Shown: positions 1-12,715, numbered from the stretch's first letter. The stretch: DNA of 12,715 nt from a virus (IMGVR_UViG_2565956711_000001), one strand, 5' to 3'. Notes: generated by a model not told the origin, from the sequence alone. Made by a program: numbers and translations.

Positions 1-297
1 TCACCATTCCTCACGCCTTGCCGGTGAATCAAACTCCTTTTCTACAAAATTTGCAGGGTTTGTATAAGTTGAAAGCGGTGCAGAACTGAGCGAAATCTCC
101 ACCCCTAAAATATTTAACACTTTGTATAGACGCTCAAAACTTGCTTTTGAAGGATTTGACTCAAGGCGAGCATAAGTCTGCTGGGTTATACCCAACATGG
201 CAGATAATTCTCTTTGAGTTAATCCTTTTGATTTACGAAAACCAATTAGAAGTGGACGTAACTGGCTAAGAAGTCTAACGGGAAAAATAGTATCCAT
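1..297 (-). CDS. XRE-family HTH DNA-binding protein, HipB-like antitoxin/regulator (98 aa); any cognate toxin gene would lie beyond the left window edge
   Basis: Complete ORF with ATG at 295-297 and TGA at 1-3. The translation has a Cro/CI-type helix-turn-helix (GLTQRELSAMLGITQQTYARLESNP) and ends in ...EEW, like the C-terminal Trp of E. coli HipB (recalled from memory). No clear Shine-Dalgarno sequence. Confidence 0.55.
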   Translation of the reverse strand: MDTIFPVRLLSQLRPLLIGFRKSKGLTQRELSAMLGITQQTYARLESNPSKASFERLYKVLNILGVEISLSSAPLSTYTNPANFVEKEFDSPARREEW

Positions 298-413
298 AAG
301 TAGGTGGCCATGTCGATTACTTCATAATAAATTCACTCCTCGTAAGAAACAGCCTGTAAGGTGTCTTATTACTTTACAGCTTACAAGGTGTAAGGGTGAA
401 CTCGTTGTATTAA

Positions 414-608
414 CTAATACTGCTCAAATTTTAAAGGTTGCATCTCGCGCTGGCTGGGATTATATTTATTAAGGACTAGCATATAGTGGTGTACGCTGTT
501 ATCCTCTTTGTAATGAGGCTTATCAGTGTGTGAAGGGAGAGGGCGGACTCTGCTTTGCCCTCTCTCTTTCATGGACTTATTTAACTTTAAATGTTTTTTA
601 AAAGTCAT
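414..608 (-). CDS. Small basic hypothetical protein (64 aa), possibly translationally coupled to the upstream gene
   Basis: Its ATG (606-608) overlaps the TGA (605-607) of the 186-aa ORF in an ATGA arrangement. AT-rich; no recognisable motif; could be spurious. Confidence 0.3.
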   Translation of the reverse strand: MTFKKHLKLNKSMKERGQSRVRPLPSHTDKPHYKEDNSVHHYMLVLNKYNPSQREMQPLKFEQY

Positions 609-1165
609 TGCCTTATTGCAATGGTTTTATTAAAAATCCCAATCAATGTGTTTATTTTTTCATTTATCTTAATTTGCTTTTTCTCTTGCTCGAGAGAAAG
701 TTTTCTGAATTCATTTTCCCTGCTCGGCACGGCAATTATCAACTCTTCATAAATCTCCTTTGCTCCTGATACTTTTTCCAACTCGCTGCTGTATTTTTCG
801 ATAAGAGTTCTTATTTGAATATTTACATTTCTGTATTCATGACTGGTAGCACTTAAAACAAGTTGACTGGAATTTTTTTTGGGTGCCTCAATTAACTCTA
901 CGCTTTTCTTTACGACATTGAATTCAGATGTGACTGAGTATACATATTGATACGCGCCTGATTTTCTGACTTTACTCAATAATCCTTTTCTAACTAAACA
1001 CTGAATTTGGTTATAAGCAAAAGCTTTTGCCTTAAAATAACTTTTCGGAAGTGAAAATCGCTCGATAAGAATTTGAGCCACATCGTTACTGGTGAAGTTA
1101 TCTTTAGCAATATAGATTATTGCGGAAAATATGTACGACTCAGCGTTGGATACTCGACTATTCAT
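605..1165 (-). CDS. Hypothetical protein (186 aa), possible winged-helix N-terminal region plus lysine/glutamate-rich C-terminal coiled coil
   Basis: Uninterrupted 186-codon ORF with ATG at 1163-1165, in a markedly AT-rich stretch compared with its flanks. The C-terminus (EKKQIKINEKINTLIGIF) looks coiled-coil. No clear Shine-Dalgarno sequence. Confidence 0.5.
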   Translation of the reverse strand: MNSRVSNAESYIFSAIIYIAKDNFTSNDVAQILIERFSLPKSYFKAKAFAYNQIQCLVRKGLLSKVRKSGAYQYVYSVTSEFNVVKKSVELIEAPKKNSSQLVLSATSHEYRNVNIQIRTLIEKYSSELEKVSGAKEIYEELIIAVPSRENEFRKLSLEQEKKQIKINEKINTLIGIFNKTIAIRQ

Positions 1166-1186
1166 ATGACTAAAACAAGGCAGTTA

Positions 1187-1236
1187 ACTTAGGATTGCTA
1201 AGTATACAACAATGGCAGATACTTAGACAATCTAAG
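1187..1236. promoter_or_regulatory. Divergent promoter region with two palindromic candidate operators (ACTTAG-N5-CTAAGT at 1187..1203; CTTAGA-N3-TCTAAG at 1222..1236)
   Basis: Both inverted repeats were read directly from the sequence. They lie between the divergent starts at 1165 (minus) and 1263 (plus). Confidence 0.4.
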
Positions 1237-1262
1237 CATTCGAGGCCAATGAAGATGAATCA

Positions 1263-1595
1263 GTGTCTGAAAAAAATCCGATACCAGAAAGACTTAAGGA
1301 AGCGAGAAGCAGGGCGGGTTTATCACAGCGCTCATTGGGCCTCCTTGTTGGGTTTGATCCCGCTTCGGCTAGCAGTCGTATGAATCATTATGAGAAAGGG
1401 CGCCATGTCCCCGATATTGATACGCTTCGACGGATGGCGGCAGAGTTAAACGTGCCGTTGAACTACTTTTTTTGTGATGATCAGACCACAGCTGAACTTG
1501 CATTACTCATATCCCGGATGACAGAGGAAGAGCGAAGTAATCTTATCGAAGCACTCAAAAGGCATCCAGGCGAAAAGCATGCTGACAAAAAATGA
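1263..1595 (+). CDS. XRE-family (Cro/CI-type) helix-turn-helix transcriptional regulator (110 aa)
   Basis: The translation contains LKEARSRAGLSQRSLGLLVGF...MAAELNVPLNYFF, a typical HTH_XRE fold signature. The only in-frame start is GTG at 1263, preceded by a weak purine-rich stretch; TGA at 1593-1595. GC content is higher than in the neighbouring AT-rich genes. Confidence 0.7.
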   Translation: MSEKNPIPERLKEARSRAGLSQRSLGLLVGFDPASASSRMNHYEKGRHVPDIDTLRRMAAELNVPLNYFFCDDQTTAELALLISRMTEEERSNLIEALKRHPGEKHADKK

Positions 1596-1799
1596 TATTA
1601 CATATAAAGCGACTGAACTTTTTGAAGGTAACGAAAGTGTAGCATTACACTGATGCAATGAACCAAGCAGGACATTACAGTGGGAGACGCCCTCTCAGAT
1701 AACAAACTCAAAAGAGGGAGCCATAAATATATGTTTATCAATACAACCAGCATTCTGCCGACAACCGGGAAGCTGTCGGCTAAATCTTCCATGTCAGAA

Positions 1800-2234
1800 T
1801 TATGACGACTTATGTAGTTCCCGAATCATATGGTTGGCCAACAGGCTTTCCACCGGTATAACCGAATTGATTTTTACCGCTTTGACAATTTCTATCAACG
1901 AAAGGGTATTTTGCGCTAATTGGTCTCGCAATTCACTTACTTCAGCCTGCAACTGCTGGTTTCTGGCCAGTAAAGCCTGACGGGTTTTGCGGTTGACGTA
2001 TTGCTGTTTTTCTTTTGGGCGTAGATTCAATGGGCCAAGTTGCTGGTCAACATAGGCAGCAATTAGGCGTTTACGCTCTAGGCTGCTCAGCGTACTTAAA
2101 CCACCGTTAACGATACCTTTTGCCTTGAGCCTAATATGCAGGGCCTTGGCGGAAATAGGGGACTTGTCAAAGCCTTCAACCAGCATCAGTTGTAATTCGT
2201 GCTCAATCAGTGTGTTCAGTTCCTTGCCGCGCAT
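1800..2234 (-). CDS. Small coiled-coil protein, fourth gene of the tri-recombinase operon (GinD-like or TnpC-like accessory protein)
   Basis: Its ATG at 2232-2234 overlaps the TGA (2234-2236) of the upstream 788-aa recombinase in an ATGA arrangement. The ORF track starts one codon earlier at TTG 2237. Coiled-coil segment NQQLQAEVSELRDQLAQN. No catalytic motif recognised. Confidence 0.6.
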   Translation of the reverse strand: MRGKELNTLIEHELQLMLVEGFDKSPISAKALHIRLKAKGIVNGGLSTLSSLERKRLIAAYVDQQLGPLNLRPKEKQQYVNRKTRQALLARNQQLQAEVSELRDQLAQNTLSLIEIVKAVKINSVIPVESLLANHMIRELHKSS

Positions 2235-4600
2235 CAATCATTCTCCTGCATCAATTGTTGGTATTCAAGTGCAAAAAGCTGGGCCAGTGTACGGACTTTG
2301 CCCTCGGTGATTACTCCACCAGACAACACACTCTCAGCAGCAACCAGTTGTTGAGTCTTGGCACGACGATGCCATTGTGCTTGTATTGCCTCGAGTTGCT
2401 GTAACCGTCGTTCGATGTCGGCCAGTCTGGTCTGGTAATCAGGCTGATGTTGAGTAAGTTGGGTCAACTTCGAATGTGCTTGCTGTAAAGCCTGTTTTTT
2501 GGCAATCAGATTTGGTAGCTCATCTATCCGGCCTGTCAGCGTGAAATGTTCACAAAAGGCAGCACTCTGGCATTTCAGTCGATAAGGACATCCCCAGAGG
2601 TTAACTTCCCGCATACAGGAGCCAAATTTCAGCGGATACAGCACGGCATGTCTTGCCACCATGTCAGAGGCTTGCTCTGGTCCTTCTGCGTCGCGGATTT
2701 CTTCAAAGGCGGCAGCAACATCTTCAAAGAGGCCGTTAGCAAATGACGCCTCGACAAACCTGGCTACATCATCCCGATCGTCAAAAGTATGCAGGTTGGC
2801 TTTGATGGTATTGTCCAAAGTCATGTGTTCCGTGACCGCCAGTTGGCCGGTCCGTTTGACGATATCCAGTGGCGTAGCAATGGAGGACGAAGAGGGCGAG
2901 ACAGTTAGTGCTGTCGAAATCGGCTGCAAGGGCACCAACGAGGCGGCTTTTCGCCGTTCTGCAAGCGCCAGATGTTGATAATGCTGATTCTGCGTGATGT
3001 CCACTCGACCCATCAACATTGCCTGTAAGTGGTCAGAGATATCCGCAATAGCAAGAAAGGTATTGATGTTGTGCCGGGGAATGTGGGTACGCATCCGCGT
3101 CGAGGTGCCATCCTCCTCCAGTAATTGATATTTGCTGAATACTGATCCATCAGGCTCAACGTTGCCTAAGAATTTATTCATAAGTGTGTTAGTGAAGGGT
3201 ATCGGTGTAGCCAGCAAAGCCAGTGTGCGCTTTAATGCCAGCGAACCCTTCTCGTGTAGAAATAGCAGATCCTCGTAGTTAACTTGGTAGCGTTTGCCAT
3301 TTTCCATCCAGGCGTGTGTACAGGGTTCGTTGGCATTCGCCAGACCAAATTCGGTCTTAATGTAATGATTGAGAGCAGTCTTGGAATAATAGATAGATTT
3401 GCTGTTTTTCGGGCCTGGTATTTCTTGAACGGGCAGCACACCTCTTTTGCTAAGGGCTTTGGATGTTTTGTCCCGTTGTCCTGCCCGGCCCCGAAAACTT
3501 GAGGTAGTTTGGGTGATGTACTTCACCACATCGTCCAGTTCGACTCGTTCACCGGGCATGTTGCTGATGGCCTGTGGCAGGTAATCAGCAAAAGATTTTG
3601 CCCGTAGATAGGTAAGATGGCTGCGTATTGGTGCGGTCAACATTTTAACGGTACTGAATATACTCTCGACCAGCGGTACTGCCAGCGGTTCTACCCAATG
3701 CGTTCGCTCCCCAGCACCTTTGACACCAACATAACGGATACCAAGAAAATAATCGGGTAATCCCTTGTCCTGAAATCGTTTGCAGATTGCCGGATCATCA
3801 ATCTGGCGTTTAAACAGGGCATCCTGTCTGAGATTAAACGCTTCAATGGAGCGAAAGCCGGTAATAACCAATAACAACAGGCAATTTAACGCGATTTTCT
3901 CAGCATCACTTTCCACCCGCTGGATTAATGCAACTATGTTCAGAAATCCGCGAATGGTAATCAACGCATCTTCACCATCGGTAGTGGTATCAGACAGCTT
4001 GGCCTGCTGTTTCAGCGCCATGGTTTCCCGGGCTTTGCGGGTCAAGTTGGTTTTGTTGGTATACTTCACATCAGAGTTGTATTGCAGTTTAACCAACGTA
4101 AATGTGAAGTGATTGACCAATTTTTGAAGGCTAACGCACCGCCCTTTATAGTTAGCTGTATTGGGGTCACTAGGAGATGAAACGCTACTGAGAAGATCCA
4201 TCGCTCGTTGAATGACAACTGTGCTCAGGTAAGATGGATGGGTCTGTCCTGTCTCATAAAGCATCGCATGGTACCATCGTTTCAGAATCATCAAAGTTGC
4301 CTTTGCCACCGCTGGCGACATACTCCTATTTCCCTGTCGGTAAACCACTACCAGCATAGCTTTCATGAACTGACTATATTCTTTGTCGATGGGCAGATGT
4401 TCTACAATACCTTTGAATCTGTTCATCTCATCAAAACGTAATGTATTTCTGCCGTTCCCTCGCAACCATCCACTTCCCTGGTTACCACTTACCCAGATAT
4501 GATCATTCCATGTTTGGGCAAAATCAGCAGACAGGTGCTGTTCGAACCATTTTTTTTGCTCTTCAATAAAAGCCTGAAAATGCTCAAAGTGATTTTTCAT
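2234..4600 (-). CDS. Tyrosine site-specific recombinase, large (788 aa), third of three tandem recombinases (GinC-like), with a C-terminal Cys4 and coiled-coil extension
   Basis: Box I-like arginine in VITGFRSIE. Box II-like HIPRHNINTFLA ... LMGRVDITQNQHY gives the R-H-R-Y catalytic pattern. C-terminal cluster CMREVNLWGCPYRLKCQSAAFC followed by a Q/L-rich coiled coil. ATG at 4598-4600 is preceded by AGGTGA; the start overlaps the upstream gene by 17 nt. Confidence 0.8.
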   Translation of the reverse strand: MKNHFEHFQAFIEEQKKWFEQHLSADFAQTWNDHIWVSGNQGSGWLRGNGRNTLRFDEMNRFKGIVEHLPIDKEYSQFMKAMLVVVYRQGNRSMSPAVAKATLMILKRWYHAMLYETGQTHPSYLSTVVIQRAMDLLSSVSSPSDPNTANYKGRCVSLQKLVNHFTFTLVKLQYNSDVKYTNKTNLTRKARETMALKQQAKLSDTTTDGEDALITIRGFLNIVALIQRVESDAEKIALNCLLLLVITGFRSIEAFNLRQDALFKRQIDDPAICKRFQDKGLPDYFLGIRYVGVKGAGERTHWVEPLAVPLVESIFSTVKMLTAPIRSHLTYLRAKSFADYLPQAISNMPGERVELDDVVKYITQTTSSFRGRAGQRDKTSKALSKRGVLPVQEIPGPKNSKSIYYSKTALNHYIKTEFGLANANEPCTHAWMENGKRYQVNYEDLLFLHEKGSLALKRTLALLATPIPFTNTLMNKFLGNVEPDGSVFSKYQLLEEDGTSTRMRTHIPRHNINTFLAIADISDHLQAMLMGRVDITQNQHYQHLALAERRKAASLVPLQPISTALTVSPSSSSIATPLDIVKRTGQLAVTEHMTLDNTIKANLHTFDDRDDVARFVEASFANGLFEDVAAAFEEIRDAEGPEQASDMVARHAVLYPLKFGSCMREVNLWGCPYRLKCQSAAFCEHFTLTGRIDELPNLIAKKQALQQAHSKLTQLTQHQPDYQTRLADIERRLQQLEAIQAQWHRRAKTQQLVAAESVLSGGVITEGKVRTLAQLFALEYQQLMQEND

Positions 4601-6149
4601 TGGACTTCACCTGTTCCTGATGAAAACGGCAGCGGGCGATAACAGACTCAATTTCAAACTGTGTGGTTTCATGGATTAAAATGAGCGGATTTCGGGAATT
4701 ACCTACACCGTCTGAAATAGCGATTAGTTCATCGACTTCTTTTTTGACGCATTCAAGTAGAGCCTGATGTTCACCATCCGTAAAAGGGCGATAATACAGA
4801 CAGCCGTAACAAGAACGCACTTCGCTGAAAGGGCATGTACTACTGTTCCTGGAGCAACCACCAATTTTATCATGCAACTCGTCACCAACGAGTCCCACCA
4901 CTGGATGGCCTTTCCAATGTGCTGAGTCGACCAGTTCCCCAGTGAGCATCATAGCCACCATATTTTGCCAAACGGGATTCGACCCAAGCGCTTTAGCACG
5001 GATCAAGGCCAACGCGGGAGTTGCCATAATGTAGTATTTAGCTACGGCAAGAGAGGTGTGCCCCAGTACATGTGCTATCTCTTCAGCGCTAGCACCTTGC
5101 ATCGCCAAAGAGTGCCCAACATTGTGGCGTAAATCAGTGGGTGTAATTGTGGGCAATGCAGCTTCGCCACATGCTACGGCGGCTTGATATTCAGGAGGAC
5201 AGAAATTTAGGATTGCCTGATTAATTGCCTGAGACACATAATGCGGAGCTGAAACGCTGAAATCGAATAGTTTATCTTCGGGGTTTTTCTTATATCTCAC
5301 GGTATAGTTCATAATTAACTCCCCAATTTCTGGGGGGATCGCCAGAAATAACCGCTCTGTCGTCACTCGTCTTTGTTTAGCATATGGTAAAAAAACACTG
5401 TATCGAATCAGACCAGATTCCTGATTTCGTGTATCGATACGAACATCTTTGACCGCCAGCCTAGCGAGTTGTACTGGGCGTGCACCCGTTACATAAGCCA
5501 ACCCAAGGATAGCTGCATTGCGCACTTCGCTGTGACTGAAACTTTTGCCATCGCGTAACAACGAAGCCATTTCAAACAGTCCATTGCAAATCATGTTTTT
5601 TTCAAGAGGGTCAAGAATATTATCGATTTCTTGGTAACCCCCCCAATGTTCGAGATACGGTCGAGGGACGAACTCAAGATCATCGTAATCTTCAAGATTG
5701 AAACCTGGGAATGTTTCAGCACAAAGTATTTTTAATCCGAATAACACGGAATAAAAAGTAGCATTATCAATATCCTCTTTTTCGATAAATAATCGGAGCG
5801 TACTAAGCGAAAACCCACCATGTTCTCGACAATATGAAATGATATTCCTCCAATCAAGGTGCAACGCTGGAAGTTTGGTTGGAAATCTCGTCGATGCATA
5901 TTTGAAACAGATATACTTGTTTAATTTATTTGAGATATAATCTTGATTGAAAACAAGATATCGCCGACTGCCTGAATAATCGAAAGTCCATTTATTTCCT
6001 TTGTTAACAATATATTTATCATCAAACTCCATTGCCGTTTTTAGATAAATTCGATCAGGAATATCGAGTTCAAAGATAGCCTTAGCTAAATCAGGAGGGT
6101 AAACTGAGTTCCCTTCGTCAGATTTTAATGCATTATCAAATGATGTCAT
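4584..6149 (-). CDS. Tyrosine site-specific recombinase (521 aa), second of three tandem recombinases (GinB-like)
   Basis: Box I LGLAYVTGARPVQLARL. Box II TDLRHNVGHSLAMQGASAEEIAHVLGHTSLAVAKYY matches the H-x-x-R ... LGH ... Y pattern. C-terminal Cys cluster CSRNSSTCPFSEVRSCYGC. ATG at 6147-6149 overlaps the upstream gene by 14 nt. Confidence 0.8.
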   Translation of the reverse strand: MTSFDNALKSDEGNSVYPPDLAKAIFELDIPDRIYLKTAMEFDDKYIVNKGNKWTFDYSGSRRYLVFNQDYISNKLNKYICFKYASTRFPTKLPALHLDWRNIISYCREHGGFSLSTLRLFIEKEDIDNATFYSVLFGLKILCAETFPGFNLEDYDDLEFVPRPYLEHWGGYQEIDNILDPLEKNMICNGLFEMASLLRDGKSFSHSEVRNAAILGLAYVTGARPVQLARLAVKDVRIDTRNQESGLIRYSVFLPYAKQRRVTTERLFLAIPPEIGELIMNYTVRYKKNPEDKLFDFSVSAPHYVSQAINQAILNFCPPEYQAAVACGEAALPTITPTDLRHNVGHSLAMQGASAEEIAHVLGHTSLAVAKYYIMATPALALIRAKALGSNPVWQNMVAMMLTGELVDSAHWKGHPVVGLVGDELHDKIGGCSRNSSTCPFSEVRSCYGCLYYRPFTDGEHQALLECVKKEVDELIAISDGVGNSRNPLILIHETTQFEIESVIARCRFHQEQVKSNEKSL

Positions 6150-7530
6150 CGTTATATCTATCCATTATAGTATCTAACGTATTATGTAGCGCTGCATTGT
6201 CTTGAATAATTCGTTGGACATTGGCAGCATTAGCCTGCTCAGACAGGAAACGTTTTGCATATAGATCAGGCATTTGACTTGTCGGACTCCATCCCCCCAT
6301 CAGTCGTAGTTCATCTTTAGCTTCTTCCATTATCCCTGAGAGGGAAGGGACTTCAGCAATAAAGTGTGTTTTATTTTGCTGGCTTTTCAAATATTTTAAA
6401 TGCCATATTTTTTGCAATGTCAAAAAGGCCCAAGTATGTCGGGTTGTATGCGGAGTCAATCGTTGCAACGAGTCAGAGTACAACGGTGATTTGTACTCTG
6501 GATATTGGTTAGTGAAGACCTGATCTATTTTCGAAAAAATAGAATGAACTGATGTGTAGGACAAAGGCTTCGCTGACTGTTGACTCGATGTAAAGATGAA
6601 ATCGTGTTTATCAGTTTTTGGTCGAAGCTTTGCTATATAAATGCTTAAAAAAATATAATCCTGCTTATCGAGCTCCAACACACGATTAGCCCATGCATTT
6701 TTGAGAGATGGCGCATTCTTTCTTGGTTCGTATGCCTCGTCGACAGTTGTCACAATCAAACTAAACTTATCACCTTTTAAATTAGGTTTAATTGAGCTGC
6801 ACTCTAACAACAATAGCTCACCTGTTCGTAAACCATAATTTAACAACAGACGAATAATCAAAAAATTGCGGAACTGAAGATGCCCGGAAGGGAAAGGATT
6901 TAGCGGGTTATGCTTTTGGGCAGAAGAGGGGGTTATTATTCCATACAGGCTGAGCACCATTGCCCCAGACAAACTCTGAAATCCTTGGCTGCTGTGACTA
7001 TGTTGCGAAAATTTGTTTGATGTAAGCGTTCGATAATTCTCCCGGCAAAGCTGTAAACGGGTGTGTAAACGCGAAGCCAAAAGTGATAATGCTTTGGGAG
7101 AGTCATCCCGGTATGCAGGTGATATGTAGGTGTTAATCAAAAAAGAAATGAAATGGATCACAGCACGAACTCTAACTGTATGAGTTAAGCTATTGGCTTT
7201 TGTGACTCTCGTTAAAGACAACACATTTGACTGGACGTTGTGGCCATTTTCTAGATACATCCAAAATGCGGGCATTTCACCGACAGCAATGTCTGGATTG
7301 TGGTCAGATGAATAGAAGCTGTAGCAAAACGAGACACCATACTTTTGCCTCCAGAATTCGTAAAAAAACTTCACAGATTGAAGTGAAGCTGACTGTGTGG
7401 ACAATGAGCGGAAAGCCAAATGGTCAATATGGTACCTAAGGGGATACAGCAACGGCAGAGAGGTTTCCAAGTCCATCAGGATCCATCGCCTTTTACGGCC
7501 TGAGATAACCAACTGCTTTAGTGAATACAC
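6136..7530 (-). CDS. Tyrosine site-specific recombinase (464 aa), first of three tandem recombinases (GinA-like)
   Basis: C-terminal LTPHTTRHTWAFL ... LMGGWSPTSQMPDLYAKRF matches the H-x-x-R ... Y catalytic motifs of the integrase family. GTG start at 7528-7530 is preceded by GAGGT about 7 nt upstream. First gene of the operon, reading away from dif. Confidence 0.8.
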   Translation of the reverse strand: MYSLKQLVISGRKRRWILMDLETSLPLLYPLRYHIDHLAFRSLSTQSASLQSVKFFYEFWRQKYGVSFCYSFYSSDHNPDIAVGEMPAFWMYLENGHNVQSNVLSLTRVTKANSLTHTVRVRAVIHFISFLINTYISPAYRDDSPKALSLLASRLHTRLQLCRENYRTLTSNKFSQHSHSSQGFQSLSGAMVLSLYGIITPSSAQKHNPLNPFPSGHLQFRNFLIIRLLLNYGLRTGELLLLECSSIKPNLKGDKFSLIVTTVDEAYEPRKNAPSLKNAWANRVLELDKQDYIFLSIYIAKLRPKTDKHDFIFTSSQQSAKPLSYTSVHSIFSKIDQVFTNQYPEYKSPLYSDSLQRLTPHTTRHTWAFLTLQKIWHLKYLKSQQNKTHFIAEVPSLSGIMEEAKDELRLMGGWSPTSQMPDLYAKRFLSEQANAANVQRIIQDNAALHNTLDTIMDRYNDDII

Positions 7531-7673
7531 AATATTTACCTCAAAATTATCATGGATATGAAGAGAATGTACTCTGTACCTAATGCAAGAAACGAGAGGG
7601 AGATCAGAAATCCTAACGTATTGATTTATCAGTTAGTGGGAGTGTCATATGAACTTATTTACCACAGTAGGTG

Positions 7674-7701
7674 ATTTAACATAATATACATTATGCGCAC
7701 C
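7674..7701 (-). other. dif: dif chromosome dimer resolution site (XerC/XerD target), exact 28-bp match to the E. coli dif sequence as recalled
   Basis: The plus strand reads ATTTAACATAATATACATTATGCGCACC, the reverse complement of GGTGCGCATAA-TGTATA-TTATGTTAAAT (XerC arm, central region, XerD arm). Confidence 0.85.
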
Positions 7702-7986
7702 AGTGCGCAGATACGCCAGAAATCAGCCTGTAACCATCACCACGGCATTAAACGGTCATCGCTGTTACGTTCTTTCGTCTTCGACCGTCAGCCATCCGTA
7801 TCGCTTCTGAATACGCCGGAATGAAAAACAGGCTTTGCAGTGCCGGGAATTATTATGGCTGACGCCATAATGCTGTTTATGTCCTCGCTTCGCTGCGGGG
7901 CTTCCGGCGCTAAGCGCCTCCCATGCCTGACGGCATAAAAACCGGATATGCCGCCACGTCACCGCATGATACGTCCGTCGCCACCA

Positions 7987-9249
7987 TCACCGCGCGCGCT
8001 CCTCGTGGGAACTCGGTGCGTGCGCGGCGCTGGCGCGCCTGACTTTTTTCGCCTGTAACACGACAAGAATATCCGTCTTGTTCTTCTCGTCAGATGAACT
8101 GGTGAGCCAGCCTTTTGGCAGAAAGCTGAACCCGGTATCGGCGTTTGTGACCTTCGATTCAGCCAGGCCACCCAGCAGAATAATATCCCCGTCAGCCGCT
8201 GATACCTCCGTATTCACCTCGCGCTTAATCAGCGTCGGGCTGTTATTCACGCCCGTATCCGTCTTCGCAAAGCTGGAAAGCTGCTGCTTAATCACAAGGT
8301 CAATATTGTCAGTCCGGATTTGCGGTTTCACGTCGAGGATAACGCCACTAGAGCGATATTCAATCGACTGGATCGGCCTGTTGTCGGCGTAGCTCACCTG
8401 ACCCAGCACCGGAACCTCGTTACCGACTGAAAACGTGGCAGATGCGCCATCCTTCACCCTGAGCCGCGGGGAACTGACGACATGAAAACGACTGTCCGTC
8501 CTGAAAAGCTCATACAGCGCATCAAGAGAGCCTGTATTCACCCGGATAAAGTTATCAAAACCGCCAGACGCGCCAATCTGTATATTCAGCTTGCCGGAAA
8601 GCAGCTTCGCCGCCAGTGCCAGCCCGGAACCGTTACGCTCACTGGTCTGAACCTCAAACACGTAAGCTGCGACAATCACTTCTTCAGAGGCAGTATCAAT
8701 CAGCGGTAAAAGCGTCTGCAACCGCTTAATCTCTGACTTCCGGCCATAATAAACCAGCACATCCCCGGTACGGTTCATAAAGTCCGATGCCGTACCCGCT
8801 ACGGCCGCTTCTGGCGATATCTGCCCGGACGGTAACGAGTTACGCTGACTGTTAAACTGCCCGGTAAACTGTCCGGCCAGAATGTCAGACAGATACGCCA
8901 CGGAACGGAAGCGAGGCCGATAAACAAAGGTCTCCTGCGGCGGCACATACACTTTCGGCGTGAACGGCGCCACGTAGTCAATGCCCTGTTTGTTATAAAT
9001 CGCAATGTTCATATTGCCGAGATAGCGCTTAATAAATGCCCGTTCATCGATATCCGGCGTGATACGGAACGTCACCACCTTATCGGATTTGGCAAGCTCC
9101 GGGTCAAGCATAAACGGCTTATCGAACACCTGAACGTAAATCATGTTCAGCGCCTGCGGCAGCGGAACAGCGTTGAGCTCCAGACTGACGCCCTTCGCCA
9201 TAACCAGCCCCGGAACCAGTAAAAAAAGTAAACCTGTTATCAGCTTCAT
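7987..9249 (-). CDS. Filamentous phage pIV-like outer-membrane secretin (420 aa)
   Basis: N-terminal signal peptide (MKLITGLLFLLVPGLVMA). C-terminal secretin-like segment (VVSSPRLRVKDGASATFSVGNEVPVLG ... GDIILLGGL). Its ATG overlaps the Zot/pI stop in an ATGA arrangement at 9246-9249, and it sits immediately downstream of the pI-like gene as in Ff phages. Confidence 0.8.
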   Translation of the reverse strand: MKLITGLLFLLVPGLVMAKGVSLELNAVPLPQALNMIYVQVFDKPFMLDPELAKSDKVVTFRITPDIDERAFIKRYLGNMNIAIYNKQGIDYVAPFTPKVYVPPQETFVYRPRFRSVAYLSDILAGQFTGQFNSQRNSLPSGQISPEAAVAGTASDFMNRTGDVLVYYGRKSEIKRLQTLLPLIDTASEEVIVAAYVFEVQTSERNGSGLALAAKLLSGKLNIQIGASGGFDNFIRVNTGSLDALYELFRTDSRFHVVSSPRLRVKDGASATFSVGNEVPVLGQVSYADNRPIQSIEYRSSGVILDVKPQIRTDNIDLVIKQQLSSFAKTDTGVNNSPTLIKREVNTEVSAADGDIILLGGLAESKVTNADTGFSFLPKGWLTSSSDEKNKTDILVVLQAKKVRRASAAHAPSSHEERAR

Positions 9250-10280
9250 CGTATCGCCCCTGAATAAACCGTCACCGTTTCGCCGTCGATTTCACCCGTC
9301 ATCATCATGCCGTCAAAGCTGAACTGCGAAGCCGGCTCTATACGCAATCTGCCTGACGTGTCTGCAACAACAACCCATGCCTGACCATCGCGTTTAAGCC
9401 GTCCGGCAAGTCGCCATTTGTCCGACACAACGGGCTTAGCTGGCGCGGCAGGTACAAAAGACGCTGAATTATTTGCGGCGGGTAAATCTTTAGTCTGCTG
9501 TTCAGGCTCTGAATTACCGTTTGACGTGAAAAACCAGAACAGATAAAAAATGGCAATTACCGCCAGAATCAGTAACCCGACAGCTTTAAACCACAACATT
9601 TTAGAACTGAAAATATTCTGACGTTTATCGGTGACAAGTTCCCTTCCCTGCCCGTTCTCATGGGATTTATATAGGGGGAATATCGCCTTGTCATATTTAT
9701 TCTGATAACTGTTCGTCAGATTCGACTTAAACAGTTTGATACCCGTAAATACGTCCACACGGTAGCGGTTATGCAGACCCAGCGCCACATGCTTACTCAT
9801 GCGATACGTTGTTTCCACCCGGTCTTTAATGAATCGCGGAAGGTTGGCAACAGACTGATTCATAACCACTAAATCACAGGTTACGCCCGTTTTTTCATCG
9901 GCAAAATGGCGATGTTCTGCAATGAAAGAGCGATGATTTGCAGGAATCCCTTTATCGTTCTCCCATATGCGCCATGCTTCATCAATACAGATTAAATCCC
10001 CCGGACGGCAGAACGTATCATCCGCAATGCCTGAATCCGTTTTGTAGGGAAAGAAATTATCGTTCTGAACGTCTTCATTCTGAACAAGTAAAATTTCACC
10101 AAGTGATTCCCTGTCTGCCTTTTTAATATCAACGCAGTAATCATAAATACTTTGCGTGGCAAGGCCGTAAATATTACTGACAATGCGACGCCCAGCGATA
10201 CAGGCGGGAATAATGACGCTTGCCACCACTTCGTAAGATTTACCGCTTCCGGGAATGCCCACATACGCAGAAATAGCCAT
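9246..10280 (-). CDS. Zot/pI-family filamentous phage assembly ATPase (344 aa)
   Basis: Walker A motif GIPGSGKS near the N-terminus, Walker B-like LICIDEAW, and a single predicted transmembrane helix (AVGLLILAVIAIFYLFWFF) separating the cytoplasmic and periplasmic parts. This is the architecture of Ff gene I and Zot. Confidence 0.85.
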   Translation of the reverse strand: MAISAYVGIPGSGKSYEVVASVIIPACIAGRRIVSNIYGLATQSIYDYCVDIKKADRESLGEILLVQNEDVQNDNFFPYKTDSGIADDTFCRPGDLICIDEAWRIWENDKGIPANHRSFIAEHRHFADEKTGVTCDLVVMNQSVANLPRFIKDRVETTYRMSKHVALGLHNRYRVDVFTGIKLFKSNLTNSYQNKYDKAIFPLYKSHENGQGRELVTDKRQNIFSSKMLWFKAVGLLILAVIAIFYLFWFFTSNGNSEPEQQTKDLPAANNSASFVPAAPAKPVVSDKWRLAGRLKRDGQAWVVVADTSGRLRIEPASQFSFDGMMMTGEIDGETVTVYSGAIR

Positions 10281-10283
10281 AAA

Positions 10284-10571
10284 TTAACCAATCAAAGGAA
10301 TGCGACGAATAATAAAGCGCGTTAACAATGCTGAAAACATCAGTTTAATCCCTTCCGTGACCATAAACAGATTCACGAAATACCATACGCTATCAGGTAG
10401 TGAGGAAAACAACCCGGCAATATCAACAGATTTTGGCAACAGTGACGCCAGAACCGGAACAAACGCCTGTACGACAAAGTACAGGCCAAAAAACAGAATA
10501 AATTTGACAACCACCGTTCGCAGCACAAAACCCAGCGCCACGTTAAAGGCTGAAACCAGAATACCAAACAT
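10284..10571 (-). CDS. Filamentous phage pVI-like minor coat / membrane protein (95 aa)
   Basis: Small, very hydrophobic protein placed between pIII-like and pI-like genes. Strong Shine-Dalgarno sequence GGAGG about 5 nt upstream of ATG at 10569-10571. Confidence 0.6.
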   Translation of the reverse strand: MFGILVSAFNVALGFVLRTVVVKFILFFGLYFVVQAFVPVLASLLPKSVDIAGLFSSLPDSVWYFVNLFMVTEGIKLMFSALLTRFIIRRIPLIG

Positions 10572-10581
10572 AACGCCTCCG

Positions 10582-12465
10582 TCACGCAGTCAGAATGATA
10601 CGCAGCGAAATAATGCCCCAGATAAGCAGGAATACCGCTTTCAGAAGTGGCCTGATTTTTTCCAGAAGCTCGCAGTGAGAATCAATGGAATATTTATTGT
10701 CCCAGAGTTCGAACGACCATACCGGACACTGAACATCCTTCGATGAAATACTCAGGTTTTTAATGTCCGGCATTAATTCTGTAATTGGCTTGAGAATTTC
10801 CTCACCTGTAGGCGGTTTTTCAAGTTCCGGCGATTTAATGCCGGGGTCTTCGCCTAAATCAACAGAAGTATCGGTATCTGTGCCTGTACCAGGGTGTACA
10901 CCTGTATCCGTTCCCGCACCGGGTCTGGCATTAACCCACGACTGAGGAACGACAACCGGACTATAAAGCAAGCCCTTATCAAGTTTTACGCCAACAGCAT
11001 TAGCCGCAGCCGTCAGTTCAGCCGCCGTAAAAGGTTTATCAAGCGGTATCCCCTGATATCCTTCCTGAACAACAGTCTGACCTGCAAGGCCATTAATAAG
11101 ATTAACCAGCGCAGCCGGGTTTAACTGTTCCTCCGGCTTGAAATCTATATTATCAATAACCTCGCCATTAATTACCTGAGGTAAATTTGATGTATCAAAT
11201 TCTGTATTAAAAAATATCTGGTCTTTAACATCCTGAACATCATTCGTCGTTTTATACACGGCCTTCTCAGGGTGGCAAATACTTTTCCACTGCGTTTTGG
11301 GATTATCAGCCGTACTGCCCGGCGCAGGTACTTTCTCGCTTTTACATAAATCCCATGAGTTTTCAAGCGTAACCGTTGTTGTTCCAACAGATAAAACCAC
11401 AGTTACAATCGATGAATATCCACCAAAATAAGGATTCGGCTTTTCATACTGAAAGTCTTTAACGGAAACCGAATAAACCTTAAAATTTCTTGGCATCCTG
11501 ATATGTAAGTTATTGTCGTCAGACGCCTCATGATAAGTCACATTGGAATGAGAATAACCATTAATCGACTTATAAAGCGCAATCATTACCGGATTATCAC
11601 TGACAAGTACAGCATCGCCCTTTGCATCCCTGATATCAGTCGAATAAGGATATTTAGTACCCTTAACTGACACACGATATACATCATTCGGTAATGGCTG
11701 GCTTATCGGCGGTGGTGCATCAATATTGTAATAGGTTGGCGCAATCTGAACAGGTTTAACCTGATGATTATAAGGGCTTATCGAGTCCTGAATATTCTTC
11801 GCAGAAAAGCCAGTAGCATCAGAGGGCAAATAAACAGCAACAGGGCTTTTAGGTGAAGGTGCAACAGAAGAAGTAACAGTAGCGCCATTGGACAAATTAA
11901 GTAAATAAGTTCCATCATCCTGTTTTATTCCACTTGTAATATATTCAACAGCTTTTGCGCCCTGCTTTAAAGCAAGGTCAGCAACGGAAATAACACCCGC
12001 AGCCTGCCCCAGCAATCCCCATGTTGTCTGTCCGGCAGCCATCATATTACTGCCAAAACTTGAAATACCCGTGGATATCGAATCGTCAATTGTATGCTTC
12101 GCAAGGCCATAAGCAGCCGCGAAAACTGACGTTCCGGTGCAAAGCTGAGGATTACCCACTTTCTCGCCACACATGCGGATTGAATCAAAAACGTCAGGAC
12201 GTTCGCGTATAACCTCCGCAGCGACAGCGATACCCGCGCCCATACCGAGAGAACTGGCACCCGTTGCGAATACACGCCCCGCAGATTGAGAAACAACCTG
12301 AGCTTCACGGGTTTCAACCATTTGCTGAATTACACGTCCAAATCCGTCTGCTGTTACTGCATCAGCATGTACACCGGATGAAACCAGTAAAGACAATATA
12401 GTAATACCTAACTTTCCAGACCCTGAATGACCGCCCAGGCGCATAAAAGCCCCCATAAAAAACAC
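10582..12465 (-). CDS. Filamentous phage pIII-like adsorption / minor coat protein (627 aa by ORF track; true start probably the ATG at 12442-12444)
   Basis: Signal peptide (MRLGGHSGSGKLGITILSLLVSSGVHA), a G/T/D/P-rich linker (PGAGTDTGVHPGTGTDTDTSVDLGEDPG) and a C-terminal hydrophobic anchor (LLKAVFLLIWGIISLRIILTA). Sits between pVIII and pVI. The ORF track start at 12465 is GTG; the ATG at 12442-12444 is preceded by a GGGGG purine run. Confidence 0.65.
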   Translation of the reverse strand: MFFMGAFMRLGGHSGSGKLGITILSLLVSSGVHADAVTADGFGRVIQQMVETREAQVVSQSAGRVFATGASSLGMGAGIAVAAEVIRERPDVFDSIRMCGEKVGNPQLCTGTSVFAAAYGLAKHTIDDSISTGISSFGSNMMAAGQTTWGLLGQAAGVISVADLALKQGAKAVEYITSGIKQDDGTYLLNLSNGATVTSSVAPSPKSPVAVYLPSDATGFSAKNIQDSISPYNHQVKPVQIAPTYYNIDAPPPISQPLPNDVYRVSVKGTKYPYSTDIRDAKGDAVLVSDNPVMIALYKSINGYSHSNVTYHEASDDNNLHIRMPRNFKVYSVSVKDFQYEKPNPYFGGYSSIVTVVLSVGTTTVTLENSWDLCKSEKVPAPGSTADNPKTQWKSICHPEKAVYKTTNDVQDVKDQIFFNTEFDTSNLPQVINGEVIDNIDFKPEEQLNPAALVNLINGLAGQTVVQEGYQGIPLDKPFTAAELTAAANAVGVKLDKGLLYSPVVVPQSWVNARPGAGTDTGVHPGTGTDTDTSVDLGEDPGIKSPELEKPPTGEEILKPITELMPDIKNLSISSKDVQCPVWSFELWDNKYSIDSHCELLEKIRPLLKAVFLLIWGIISLRIILTA

Positions 12466-12498
12466 ATAAAATCAAAAAGATATTGAGCCATAAATATA

Positions 12499-12518
12499 AA
12501 GGGGCTGTTACGCCCCTT
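12499..12518 (-). terminator. Rho-independent terminator hairpin downstream of the major coat gene
   Basis: Perfect 7-bp GC-rich stem (AAGGGGC / GCCCCTT) with a 6-nt loop, 12 nt after the pVIII stop, followed on the minus strand by a T-rich run (TTTATATTTAT). Ff phages have a terminator at this position after gene VIII. Confidence 0.5.
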
Positions 12519-12529
12519 ACCTTTATGAA

Positions 12530-12715
12530 TTAAGCGCCACGAACCATACGCAAAATCCAGCGGACACCCGCAGAACCTGCATACAGAACAATAAGAGAAC
12601 CCGCTACCGCCATAATTCCGGTCAGAACGGAACCGAAATTAACGCTGTTAGTCAGTGGCGTAAGGTCAATACCTTTACCACCAACAACATCACCTTCAGC
12701 AGCAAATACGGCAGG
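12530..12715 (-). CDS. Filamentous phage major coat protein pVIII (partial; N-terminus off-window)
   Basis: Hand translation of the minus strand gives ...PAVFA/AEGDVVGGKGIDLTPLTNSVNFGSVLTGIMAVAGSLIVLYAGSAGVRWILRMVRGA*. It has a signal-peptide cleavage context (FA-AEGD, like the Ff mature N-terminus), a hydrophobic core and a basic C-terminus. TAA at 12530-12532. Not in the ORF track because the start lies outside the window. Confidence 0.7.
   Translation of the reverse strand, partial: PAVFAAEGDVVGGKGIDLTPLTNSVNFGSVLTGIMAVAGSLIVLYAGSAGVRWILRMVRGA

Follow-up and report, generated by a model that had tools for sequence, protein, structure and literature searches.

At the chromosomal terminus of an E. 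coli, a single dif site is bordered on both sides by mobile DNA, and our reading, to which we give a probability of about 0.8, is that the two elements are unrelated and reach dif through different chemistry: on one side a filamentous phage that would be of the CTXphi type, on the other a GInt-family island. The stretch of DNA analyzed here (the window) comprises 12,715 nucleotides from a virus (IMGVR_UViG_2565956711_000001), with the island to the left of dif and the phage to the right. The dif site, at which XerCD/FtsK resolves chromosome dimers, is among the most conserved non-coding sites of bacteria and is already known to be exploited by Xer-dependent phages such as CTXphi (cholera toxin) and by IS1202-family insertion sequences. 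Both the dif site and the phage are of known kinds, whereas the targeting of dif by a GInt island appears to be undescribed. An oddity remarked upon in the initial annotation of this DNA, namely that an element with its own recombinases sits beside the very dif used by the phage, is not accidental, as its crossover lies in the outer XerD arm and the arrangement recurs widely.

The window contains one exact copy of the canonical E. coli dif sequence, GGTGCGCATAATGTATATTATGTTAAAT, at 7674–7701 on the minus strand with 0 mismatches, and 0 of 200 dinucleotide-preserving shuffles produced a match with up to 3 mismatches allowed. Read along the plus strand, the XerD arm spans 7674–7684, the central region 7685–7690 and the XerC arm 7691–7701. 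This 28-bp layout of arm, 6-bp center and arm fits the species consensus, and the identical 28-mer lies between the yneL pseudogene and hipA in K-12 MG1655; the outer flanks of dif in E. coli EC09 and FELIX_MS533 are also those of K-12, with ydeQRST/yneL on one side and hipAB on the other. The orientation of KOPS (GGGNAGGG) switches exactly at dif, from the plus strand on the left to the minus strand on the right in K-12, and the KOPS of the window are likewise directed towards dif, one from the left (6342–6349, plus strand) and two from the right (9641–9653, minus strand, starting at 9641 and 9646). Because of this polarity switch and the yneL/dif/hipA synteny with K-12, the 28-mer is confirmed as the genuine chromosomal terminus dif of an E. 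coli. The initial annotation had called the 28-mer an exact reverse-complement dif and had placed the window at the replication terminus, and both statements hold. The two findings that it named as fatal to its reading were not made: synteny and KOPS place the terminus dif here and not elsewhere, and the 28-mer is not within any longer repeat. Its proposal to look for a switch in GC skew fared less well; the skew does flip sign at dif, but the flip carries no weight because both flanks are mobile DNA, and KOPS and synteny were used instead. A relaxed two-arm scan of the whole window returned no second dif-like site, in agreement with the earlier report of none in direct orientation.

Where, then, is the degenerate partner site that the initial annotation sought? 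The whole window is the exact reverse complement of a piece (6535–19249) of a metagenome scaffold, scaffold_103 of ENA ERZ28649523, on which an autotransporter gene, hipB and hipA are followed by 55 bp left over from an IS end and by a first copy of the prophage. The hybrid site GGTGCGCATAA TGTGTG ACTCGTTATGT separates this copy from a second one, the one in the window, and next come the perfect dif and the genes for proteins of 464, 521, 788 and 144 aa. The partner site is real: it is the hybrid site between the tandem copies, at approximately 15343–15370 in window coordinates, some 2.6 kb beyond the end of the window.

The two prophage copies lie head to tail and are 99.87% identical, and the unit measures 7,669 bp. 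Of the dif-proximal copy, recognized from Pfam matches and from the tandem arrangement, 5.0 of 7.67 kb fall within the window (7702–12715, minus strand). Its genes, all on the minus strand, encode the pIV secretin (7987–9249; Pfam Secretin), pI/Zot (9246–10280; Pfam Zot), a pVI-like DUF2523 protein (10284–10571; Pfam DUF2523), a pIII-like protein (10582–12465) and pVIII, which is cut by the window end (12530–12715). The complete unit also encodes small structural proteins and a G2P-type replication protein (Pfam G2P_X_C); a Pfam search and the gene content of the unit revealed no integrase gene. The same phage is found in tandem at dif in E. coli G5, where it is 99% identical across the full unit, and in three other assemblies, in which the dif-proximal 5 kb are identical to the window, such that all five genomes or scaffolds with the phage have tandem arrays. 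In GCA_053003625.1, IS66-family transposases are inserted in two copies of the array. A megablast comparison of the prophage with a phage collection gave no nucleotide match, and the nearest named relatives in a protein search are gut and saliva inoviruses with a Zot identity of at most 52%. We suggest that the phage, a known kind of element, is a new lineage within the CTX class.

All phage junctions lie at the boundary between the XerC arm and the central region, and the bases TGT are common to the phage site and dif. The hybrid site between the copies is the same in the source scaffold, in G5 and in the other tandem assemblies, and in one assembly the XerC arm of the outermost phage site is that of the host, AGTGCGCATAA. 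From the fourth central base onward, the inter-copy junction is perfectly identical to the dif junction, and the predicted XerC-type strand exchange must fall within the stretch shared by dif and attP site 1, which consists of the XerC arm and the three adjacent central bases TGT (7688–7701, minus strand). Every junction of the phage with a XerC arm also contains a perfect 7-bp palindrome, TGCGCAC-CA-GTGCGCA, which extends from the arm into the first phage bases (7694–7709 in the window). Viewed as a duplex, phage site 1 has no usable XerD arm, with 5 of 11 matches at 6-bp spacing; a good XerD-like arm is found only 11 nt away, and it pairs with site 2 in the fold. Site 2 is a second dif-like sequence, inverted and about 45 nt beyond site 1 (CTTTAGCATAA CGTCA TTATGCGCATT). 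Together, the two sites fold as a forked hairpin (−31 kcal/mol; z −7.3): the XerC arms form a perfect duplex, a bulge on one side follows, and beyond it come a duplex resembling the XerD arm (TTATGTTGAAA / TTTAGCATAA) and a distal stem-loop. This design, with its two inverted sites, its bulge and its distal stem, recurs at the same position in the genomes of two free inoviruses whose Zot identity is at most 52%; there the stem sequences differ and the XerC arm is of another type (ATTTCGCATAA; z −10.3 and −6.5). Both strands of the att region fold about equally well, and the assignment to the (+) strand rests on gene orientation.

These features are consistent with integration in the manner of CTXphi. 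In the packaged (+) single strand, the two inverted dif-like sites would fold into the forked hairpin, host XerC would exchange one strand pair between this hairpin and dif, with the TGT beside the XerC arm common to both, and replication would complete the integration. dif would thereby stay intact on the XerD side, the hybrid site formed on the opposite side would be dead, and new phage DNA would presumably come from rolling-circle replication across the tandem copies. The published description of the CTXphi class, to which Ypfphi and CUS-1phi belong, is similar: (+)ssDNA with an attP(+) of about 150 nt is the substrate, XerC acts first, replication completes the irreversible integration, and phage are made from tandem copies (PMC4246890). 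As in CTXphi, RS1, Ypfphi and CUS-1phi, we have here an integrase-less inovirus at dif with a XerC-arm junction, a regenerated intact dif, tandem arrays and an attP(+) of roughly 100–150 nt that is folded from a pair of inverted dif-like sites. Unlike them, the phage is of another lineage, encodes its own pIV secretin, has a Zot at most 52% identical to that of any deposited phage, resides in E. coli and relatives, and has no toxin cargo that we could see. The proposal in the initial annotation of a XerCD-dependent filamentous prophage like CTXphi, CUS-1 or Ypf is supported by the junctions, by the lack of an integrase and by the attP design, from which we infer Xer dependence and the use of single-stranded DNA. 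Additionally, the question that it left open, which of the two elements used XerCD, has an answer: only the phage shows the Xer signature, i.e. junctions at the boundary of XerC arm and central region.

Our first working idea for the phage was integration of the VGJphi type, and it was dropped on account of the second inverted site; the 5/11 XerD arm at 6-bp spacing likewise does not fit a single duplex attP with both arms at dif-like spacing. The TLCphi type, defined by a central region identical to that of dif, a degenerate XerD arm and a XerD-first exchange that XafT activates, does not agree with the phage center, TGTGTG as against TGTATA in dif. How much can still be said for a VGJphi-type phage, which would integrate as dsDNA by reversible XerC exchange at a single attP, with the second site and hairpin serving only as a terminator or replication signal? 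Junction sequences alone do not separate the CTX type from the VGJ type: site 1 has a perfect XerC arm with TGT homology on the XerC side, identical junctions are expected, and the distal hairpin sits after gene IV, where a terminator would be expected. Against this stand the lack of a usable XerD arm in duplex site 1, whose XerD-like arm is displaced by 11 nt and pairs with site 2, the retention of the two-inverted-site design with host-specific arms in distant relatives, and the tandem state of every occurrence, as expected if excision is impossible. We consider the VGJphi type doubtful. Taken as CTX-type, the phage would add an enterobacterial, secretin-encoding example of ssDNA attachment, with comparative support for the hairpin.

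Insertion sequences are a further component of this locus. In EC09, in G5 and on plasmids, an ISKpn21-like IS is inserted at a distance of 5 bp from the XerC arm, on its outer side, and has duplicated 5 bp of its target; insertion at dif or dif-like sites is a documented habit of the ISAba32 subgroup of the IS1202 family (PMC10132070; bioRxiv 10.1101/2022.12.17.520857). The EC09 element is a 2,761-bp ISKpn21-like transporter IS just to the right of dif (15707–18467 of the piece examined), with the target duplication AATAT and a Shedu passenger gene; beside its right inverted repeat it has a hairpin that resembles the phage attP, with compensatory changes relative to the phage, and it also has an inverted dif-like site, GTGCGCATAA TGACG TTATGCTAAAG. 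Canonical ISKpn21 (11908–14185 of its retrieved piece) is without the attP-like hairpin and dif-like segment. The source scaffold retains only the distal IS end (55 bp, IS1202-type) and an IS-type hairpin, fused to the phage at the second dif-like site (approximately 3850–3960 of the hipA-proximal piece), and because of this fusion of the IS end to phage site 2, the outermost hybrid att site is missing there. The arrangement implies a deletion between phage site 2 and its IS-borne look-alike, which would have removed attL, the transposase gene and Shedu.

The element on the left of dif is, by gene order and protein homology, a GInt-family island with its own tyrosine recombinases. Its gin genes (464, 521, 788 and 145 aa) overlap and lie on the same strand, about 150 bp from the island end. 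The ginA-like gene (6136–7530, minus strand; 464 aa from a GTG start, 446 aa with a start at 7476 in RefSeq) encodes a tyrosine recombinase that matches Pfam Phage_integrase above the gathering score (E 4e-7), with the motif residues R235, H361xxR364, W414 and Y424, and the ginB-like gene (4584–6149, minus strand; 521 aa) encodes another (Phage_integrase E 1e-10; R224, R341-H342, H363 and Y372/373). A phmmer search of PDB sequences with GinA and GinB gave no matches. The 788-aa product of the ginC-like gene (2234–4600, minus strand) has no Pfam or NCBIfam match and was assigned a putative recombinase fold with a C-terminal Cys cluster from hhalign, motifs and an AF2 model. An alignment of 19 GinC sequences shows invariant R250, H506xxR509-H510 and Y541, which align with the HxxRH..Y of XerD in a sub-threshold PDB-sequence alignment; the model has a pLDDT of 73.5 and a pTM of 0.45, and Foldseek ranks 1–45 in the PDB are all tyrosine recombinases (Cre, XerH, Flp), with weak scores (best E 2.7e-3). 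With its conserved R250, HxxRH and Y541, the GinC-like protein may be catalytically complete. The initial annotation had spoken of a tri-recombinase operon, a fair label given that two of the proteins pass Pfam Phage_integrase and the third, without a Pfam match, has the putative recombinase fold and R..HxxRH..Y. Four cysteines near the C terminus of the GinC-like protein are also invariant (C662, C671, C677 and C683), and GinB has a similar Cys-rich C-terminal stretch; these stretches could be zinc-binding modules, and the passages of the GInt text consulted contain no mention of such a module. The ginD position is occupied by a gene for a small protein of 144–145 aa (1800–2237, minus strand), placed by its position and size, which are those of ginD/srap, and without a Pfam or NCBIfam match. 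Next to the operon and still inside the island (1–1799) is a module of two HTH genes (1–297, minus strand; 1263–1595, plus strand; Pfam HTH_3/HTH_19) and a 186-aa ORF (605–1165, minus strand) that accompanies the gin genes in chromosomes and plasmids. Variable defense cargo follows farther to the left, beyond the window. NCBIfam offered no informative family for GinC, GinD or the 186-aa ORF.

Membership in the GInt family was tested against the GInt of E. coli O157 Sakai (ECs_3509–3512), whose ginC and ginD orthologs are given in the published Additional file 10. Position by position, the GinA-like protein is 29% identical to ECs_3512 (E 4e-15), the GinB-like protein is 24% identical to ECs_3511 (E 2e-8), and the GinC-like profile matches ECs_3510 in hhalign with a probability of 96.6% (E 6e-10); similarity of the ginD-position protein to ECs_3509 was not detectable (E 2.1). 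We assign the element to the GInts because of this homology of A, B and C together with the gene order, which in GInts is two recombinases, a large atypical one and a small protein (Bardaji 2017, PMC5385486). The likeness extends to an ordered four-gene operon at one end, in which two genes for RHRY-type recombinases precede one for a large protein with a putative recombinase fold and one for a small protein, to variable cargo, and to short direct repeats at the ends that are consistent with a 6–7 nt staggered crossover. The island differs from published GInts in its target, namely the outer XerD arm in dif or in the dif-like sites of plasmids, in a GinC-like protein that appears to keep the first arginine reported missing in GInts, in a ginD without detectable similarity, and in cargo that consists mainly of anti-phage defense genes. 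The SE family (strand-biased circularizing integrative elements; intA-tfp-intB-srap), which was considered first, also has three recombinase-fold genes and a small auxiliary gene at one end, as well as short core repeats, but its large non-canonical protein is the second (PMC10214605), whereas the large non-Pfam protein here is the third, as in GInts, and the SE assignment was rejected. A fourth gene and 20–40 kb of cargo argue against a RIT (recombinase-in-trio) element, a cargo-free set of three neighboring RitA/RitB/RitC-type recombinases bounded by inverted repeats.

Two independent comparisons of occupied with empty sites locate the crossover of the island. Unoccupied dif had been recommended for such an alignment in the initial annotation, and K-12 provides a precise empty site for the islands of both EC09 and FELIX_MS533. 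In EC09, which has a 38-kb island, attL reads ..CAGACATG (catg) ATTTAAC/TTATGTTGTGTGAG.. and attR reads ..GTAGGTG ATTTAAC/ATAATATACATTATGCGCAC (in short form ..ggtgATTTAAC/ATAATATACA..), the slash following the repeat. FELIX_MS533 carries a different GInt variant, about 84% identical and with other cargo, for which attL reads ..catgATTTAAC/TTATGTTGAGTGC.. and attR reads ..GGACTAA ATTTAAC/ATAA.., i.e. ..actaaATTTAAC/ATAA..; it was taken for the second attL because the left flank of G5 is rearranged (lsrK-side genes). On the plasmid pNDM-IMP, the far end of the island is obscured by inserted resistance regions. Both variants have ATTTAAC as a direct repeat at the two island ends, 7 nt long (9 nt in EC09), and in the window this core, at attR, is 7674–7680 (plus strand), the outer 7 nt of the XerD arm. 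XerC and XerD cut in the central region, which does not include the repeat; the length of the repeat fits the staggered cuts of 6–7 nt proposed for GInts (PMC5385486). Duplication of the heptamer restores a complete dif at the gin end.

Additionally, both island ends have an inverted subterminal motif, ATGAACTnA / TnGTTCAT, 16–18 nt from the core. In the window the motif is ATGAACTTA (7649–7657, plus strand), and an inverted copy (TAGTTCAT / TGGTTCAT) is present about 18 nt inside the attL end in EC09 and MS533; across 23 loci from at least 10 genera, TAA(C/G)TTCAT is conserved 15–20 nt from the XerD arm. This motif is a probable binding site of the Gin recombinases. A short ORF, ATG AAC TTA TTT ACC ACA GTA GGT GAT TTA ACA TAA (7649–7684, plus strand), exits the island end and stops in the XerD arm; because the G5-type variant has a broken version of it, it is probably a conserved DNA motif and not a gene. 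We propose that the island, which has the gin operon at its dif-proximal end and the defense-gene cargo beyond it, integrates by means of its own tyrosine recombinases with a crossover in ATTTAAC. The joint of a circular island is predicted to read ..ATGAACTTA-N16-ATTTAAC-TTATGTTG...

How widespread is this arrangement? Positions 1–7702 of the window match more than 100 E. coli chromosomes at an identity of at least 99%, and the best 24 of the listed E. coli matches (99.9–100% identity) end at 7700–7705, the end of dif. The gin region alone matches 277 of 5,426 complete E. coli genomes, and the gin module or island sequence is present in approximately 5–8% of them (277–411 of 5,426). The gin region also has matches in 176 plasmid records, and in 24 of these the match covers at least 80% of it. 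On the three plasmids inspected (IncHI1-type and IncU; two at 98.5–99.8% identity and one an 81% variant), the ginA end abuts a dif-like site that has only its XerD arm in common with dif, the center and XerC arm being the plasmid's own. A scan of species-representative genomes with the GinC alignment yielded 47 loci, 36 of which had enough upstream sequence to be assessed. At 23 of these 36, in Enterobacterales, Acinetobacter, Psychrobacter, Moraxella, Aeromonas and Vibrio, the ginA end has a full dif-like 28-mer with a perfect XerD arm, TTATGTTAAAT; in 20 of the 23 the arm is 2.9–3.4 kb upstream of ginC in the same orientation, an interval in which a perfect 11-mer is expected by chance at about 6e-4 per locus. 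The XerC arm at most of the 23 loci is of the host group's own dif type, for example ATTTCGCATAA in Acinetobacter, AGTTCGCATAA in Pectobacterium, ACCGCGCATAA in Aeromonas and GGTGCGCATTA in Vibrio. The remaining 13 of the 36 are not at a recognizable dif, and some are beside core-like heptamers, which suggests secondary or alternative targets. Four non-dif loci (Psychrobacter, Photobacterium and Vibrio) retain the TAACTTCAT end motif, and two adjoin TTTAAAT and ATTAAAT. From the junctions, homologies and distribution we conclude that the GinC clade targets dif by site-specific recombination of its own, with the Gin proteins as the predicted recombinases.

Could the association with dif have arisen otherwise? 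An island that is a XerCD-dependent IMEX, or that brings its own dif copy such that the adjacent dif is element-borne and not a target, would account for the perfect XerD arm that the island always abuts, plasmids included. The end repeat, however, is in the outer XerD arm and not in the Xer-cut central region, the far island end keeps only the ATTTAAC heptamer, the central region and XerC arm are in each case those of the respective host or plasmid, and a GInt-type operon gives the island two or three recombinases of its own; this explanation seems to us very improbable. The sharing of a left flank that ends at dif among more than 100 E. coli chromosomes could also reflect vertical inheritance, or homologous recombination of a terminus segment, and no targeting at all. 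Yet the same arrangement is found across genera (with a GinC identity of 30–70% and host-specific dif) and on plasmids, cargo differs between variants, and empty sites are precise, and we find an origin by inheritance scarcely credible. Another possibility is that the Gin recombinases act on their own core but use dif-bound host XerD (or XerC) as a partner in targeting or synapsis. dif itself is the only sequence conserved at all targets, with an outer flank that varies; the weak best family matches of GinB include XerD and XerC; and there is a precedent in the XerC-like protein of Tn6022, an element-encoded tyrosine recombinase that cooperates with XerD at a site with a perfect XerD half-site (PMC11014353). 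The Tn6022 system differs from the island in that its one XerC-like protein needs host XerD and cuts the normal central region of an element-borne site. With the crossover of the island inside the XerD footprint, bound XerD would be more likely to block than to assist; moreover, GInts with other targets work in Pseudomonas without any dif (PMC5385486), and some members of the clade are at non-dif sites with only a core-like heptamer. A Xer partner is in our judgment unlikely, and we favor recombination by the Gin proteins themselves.

The comparison with insertion sequences is instructive as well. Members of the ISAba32 subgroup (ISKpn21, ISAjo2) resemble the island in targeting dif and dif-like sites of chromosomes and IncHI plasmids, and they lie beside the same dif in related genomes; unlike the island, they are driven by a transposase and insert 5 bp outside the XerC arm with a 5-bp duplication, and not by a crossover inside the XerD arm. 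The targeting of dif or XerD by GInts, or integrases on the XerD side, are absent from the main texts on GInts (PMC5385486), on the host range of SEs and GInts (PMC10214605), of a 2024 GInt preprint and on the IS1202 family (PMC10132070; bioRxiv 10.1101/2022.12.17.520857), and a dif target is likewise absent from the accessible part of the GInt paper's supplement text. In the open-access literature we found no report of GInts that target dif, and broader searches returned only unrelated systems.

The cargo of the dif-targeting islands, compared in EC09, G5, FELIX_MS533, pNDM-IMP and pSGB23, consists mostly of annotated or likely anti-phage defense genes and differs between variants: an ATP-dependent nuclease and UvrD-helicase pair, NACHT, SEC-C and AlbA in EC09; HNH, nucleotidyltransferase, ThiF and MPN in G5; a DEAD helicase with a sigma-like protein in FELIX_MS533; and a TIR protein in pNDM-IMP. 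The cargo also includes IS elements and a group II intron.

What might this mean beyond one E. coli terminus? We lean, by somewhat better than even odds, towards the view that dif itself is what the recombinases of a broad GInt-like clade have evolved to recognize, and that their crossover inside the outer XerD arm needs no Xer catalysis; the clade is represented in Enterobacterales, Moraxellaceae, Aeromonas and Vibrio as well as on large conjugative plasmids. Such a use of dif would be a third one, so far undescribed, besides those of the IMEX and of the IS1202 family; Gin recombinases may compete or cooperate with XerD, and terminus and plasmid Xer sites would be a shuttle point for defense islands. 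If true, such targeting would explain the build-up of defense islands at the E. coli terminus, and islands could then move readily between chromosomes and the dif-like sites of IncHI-type resistance plasmids. Moreover, it would represent a compact, portable system for site-specific insertion beside a site that is present in nearly every proteobacterial replicon.
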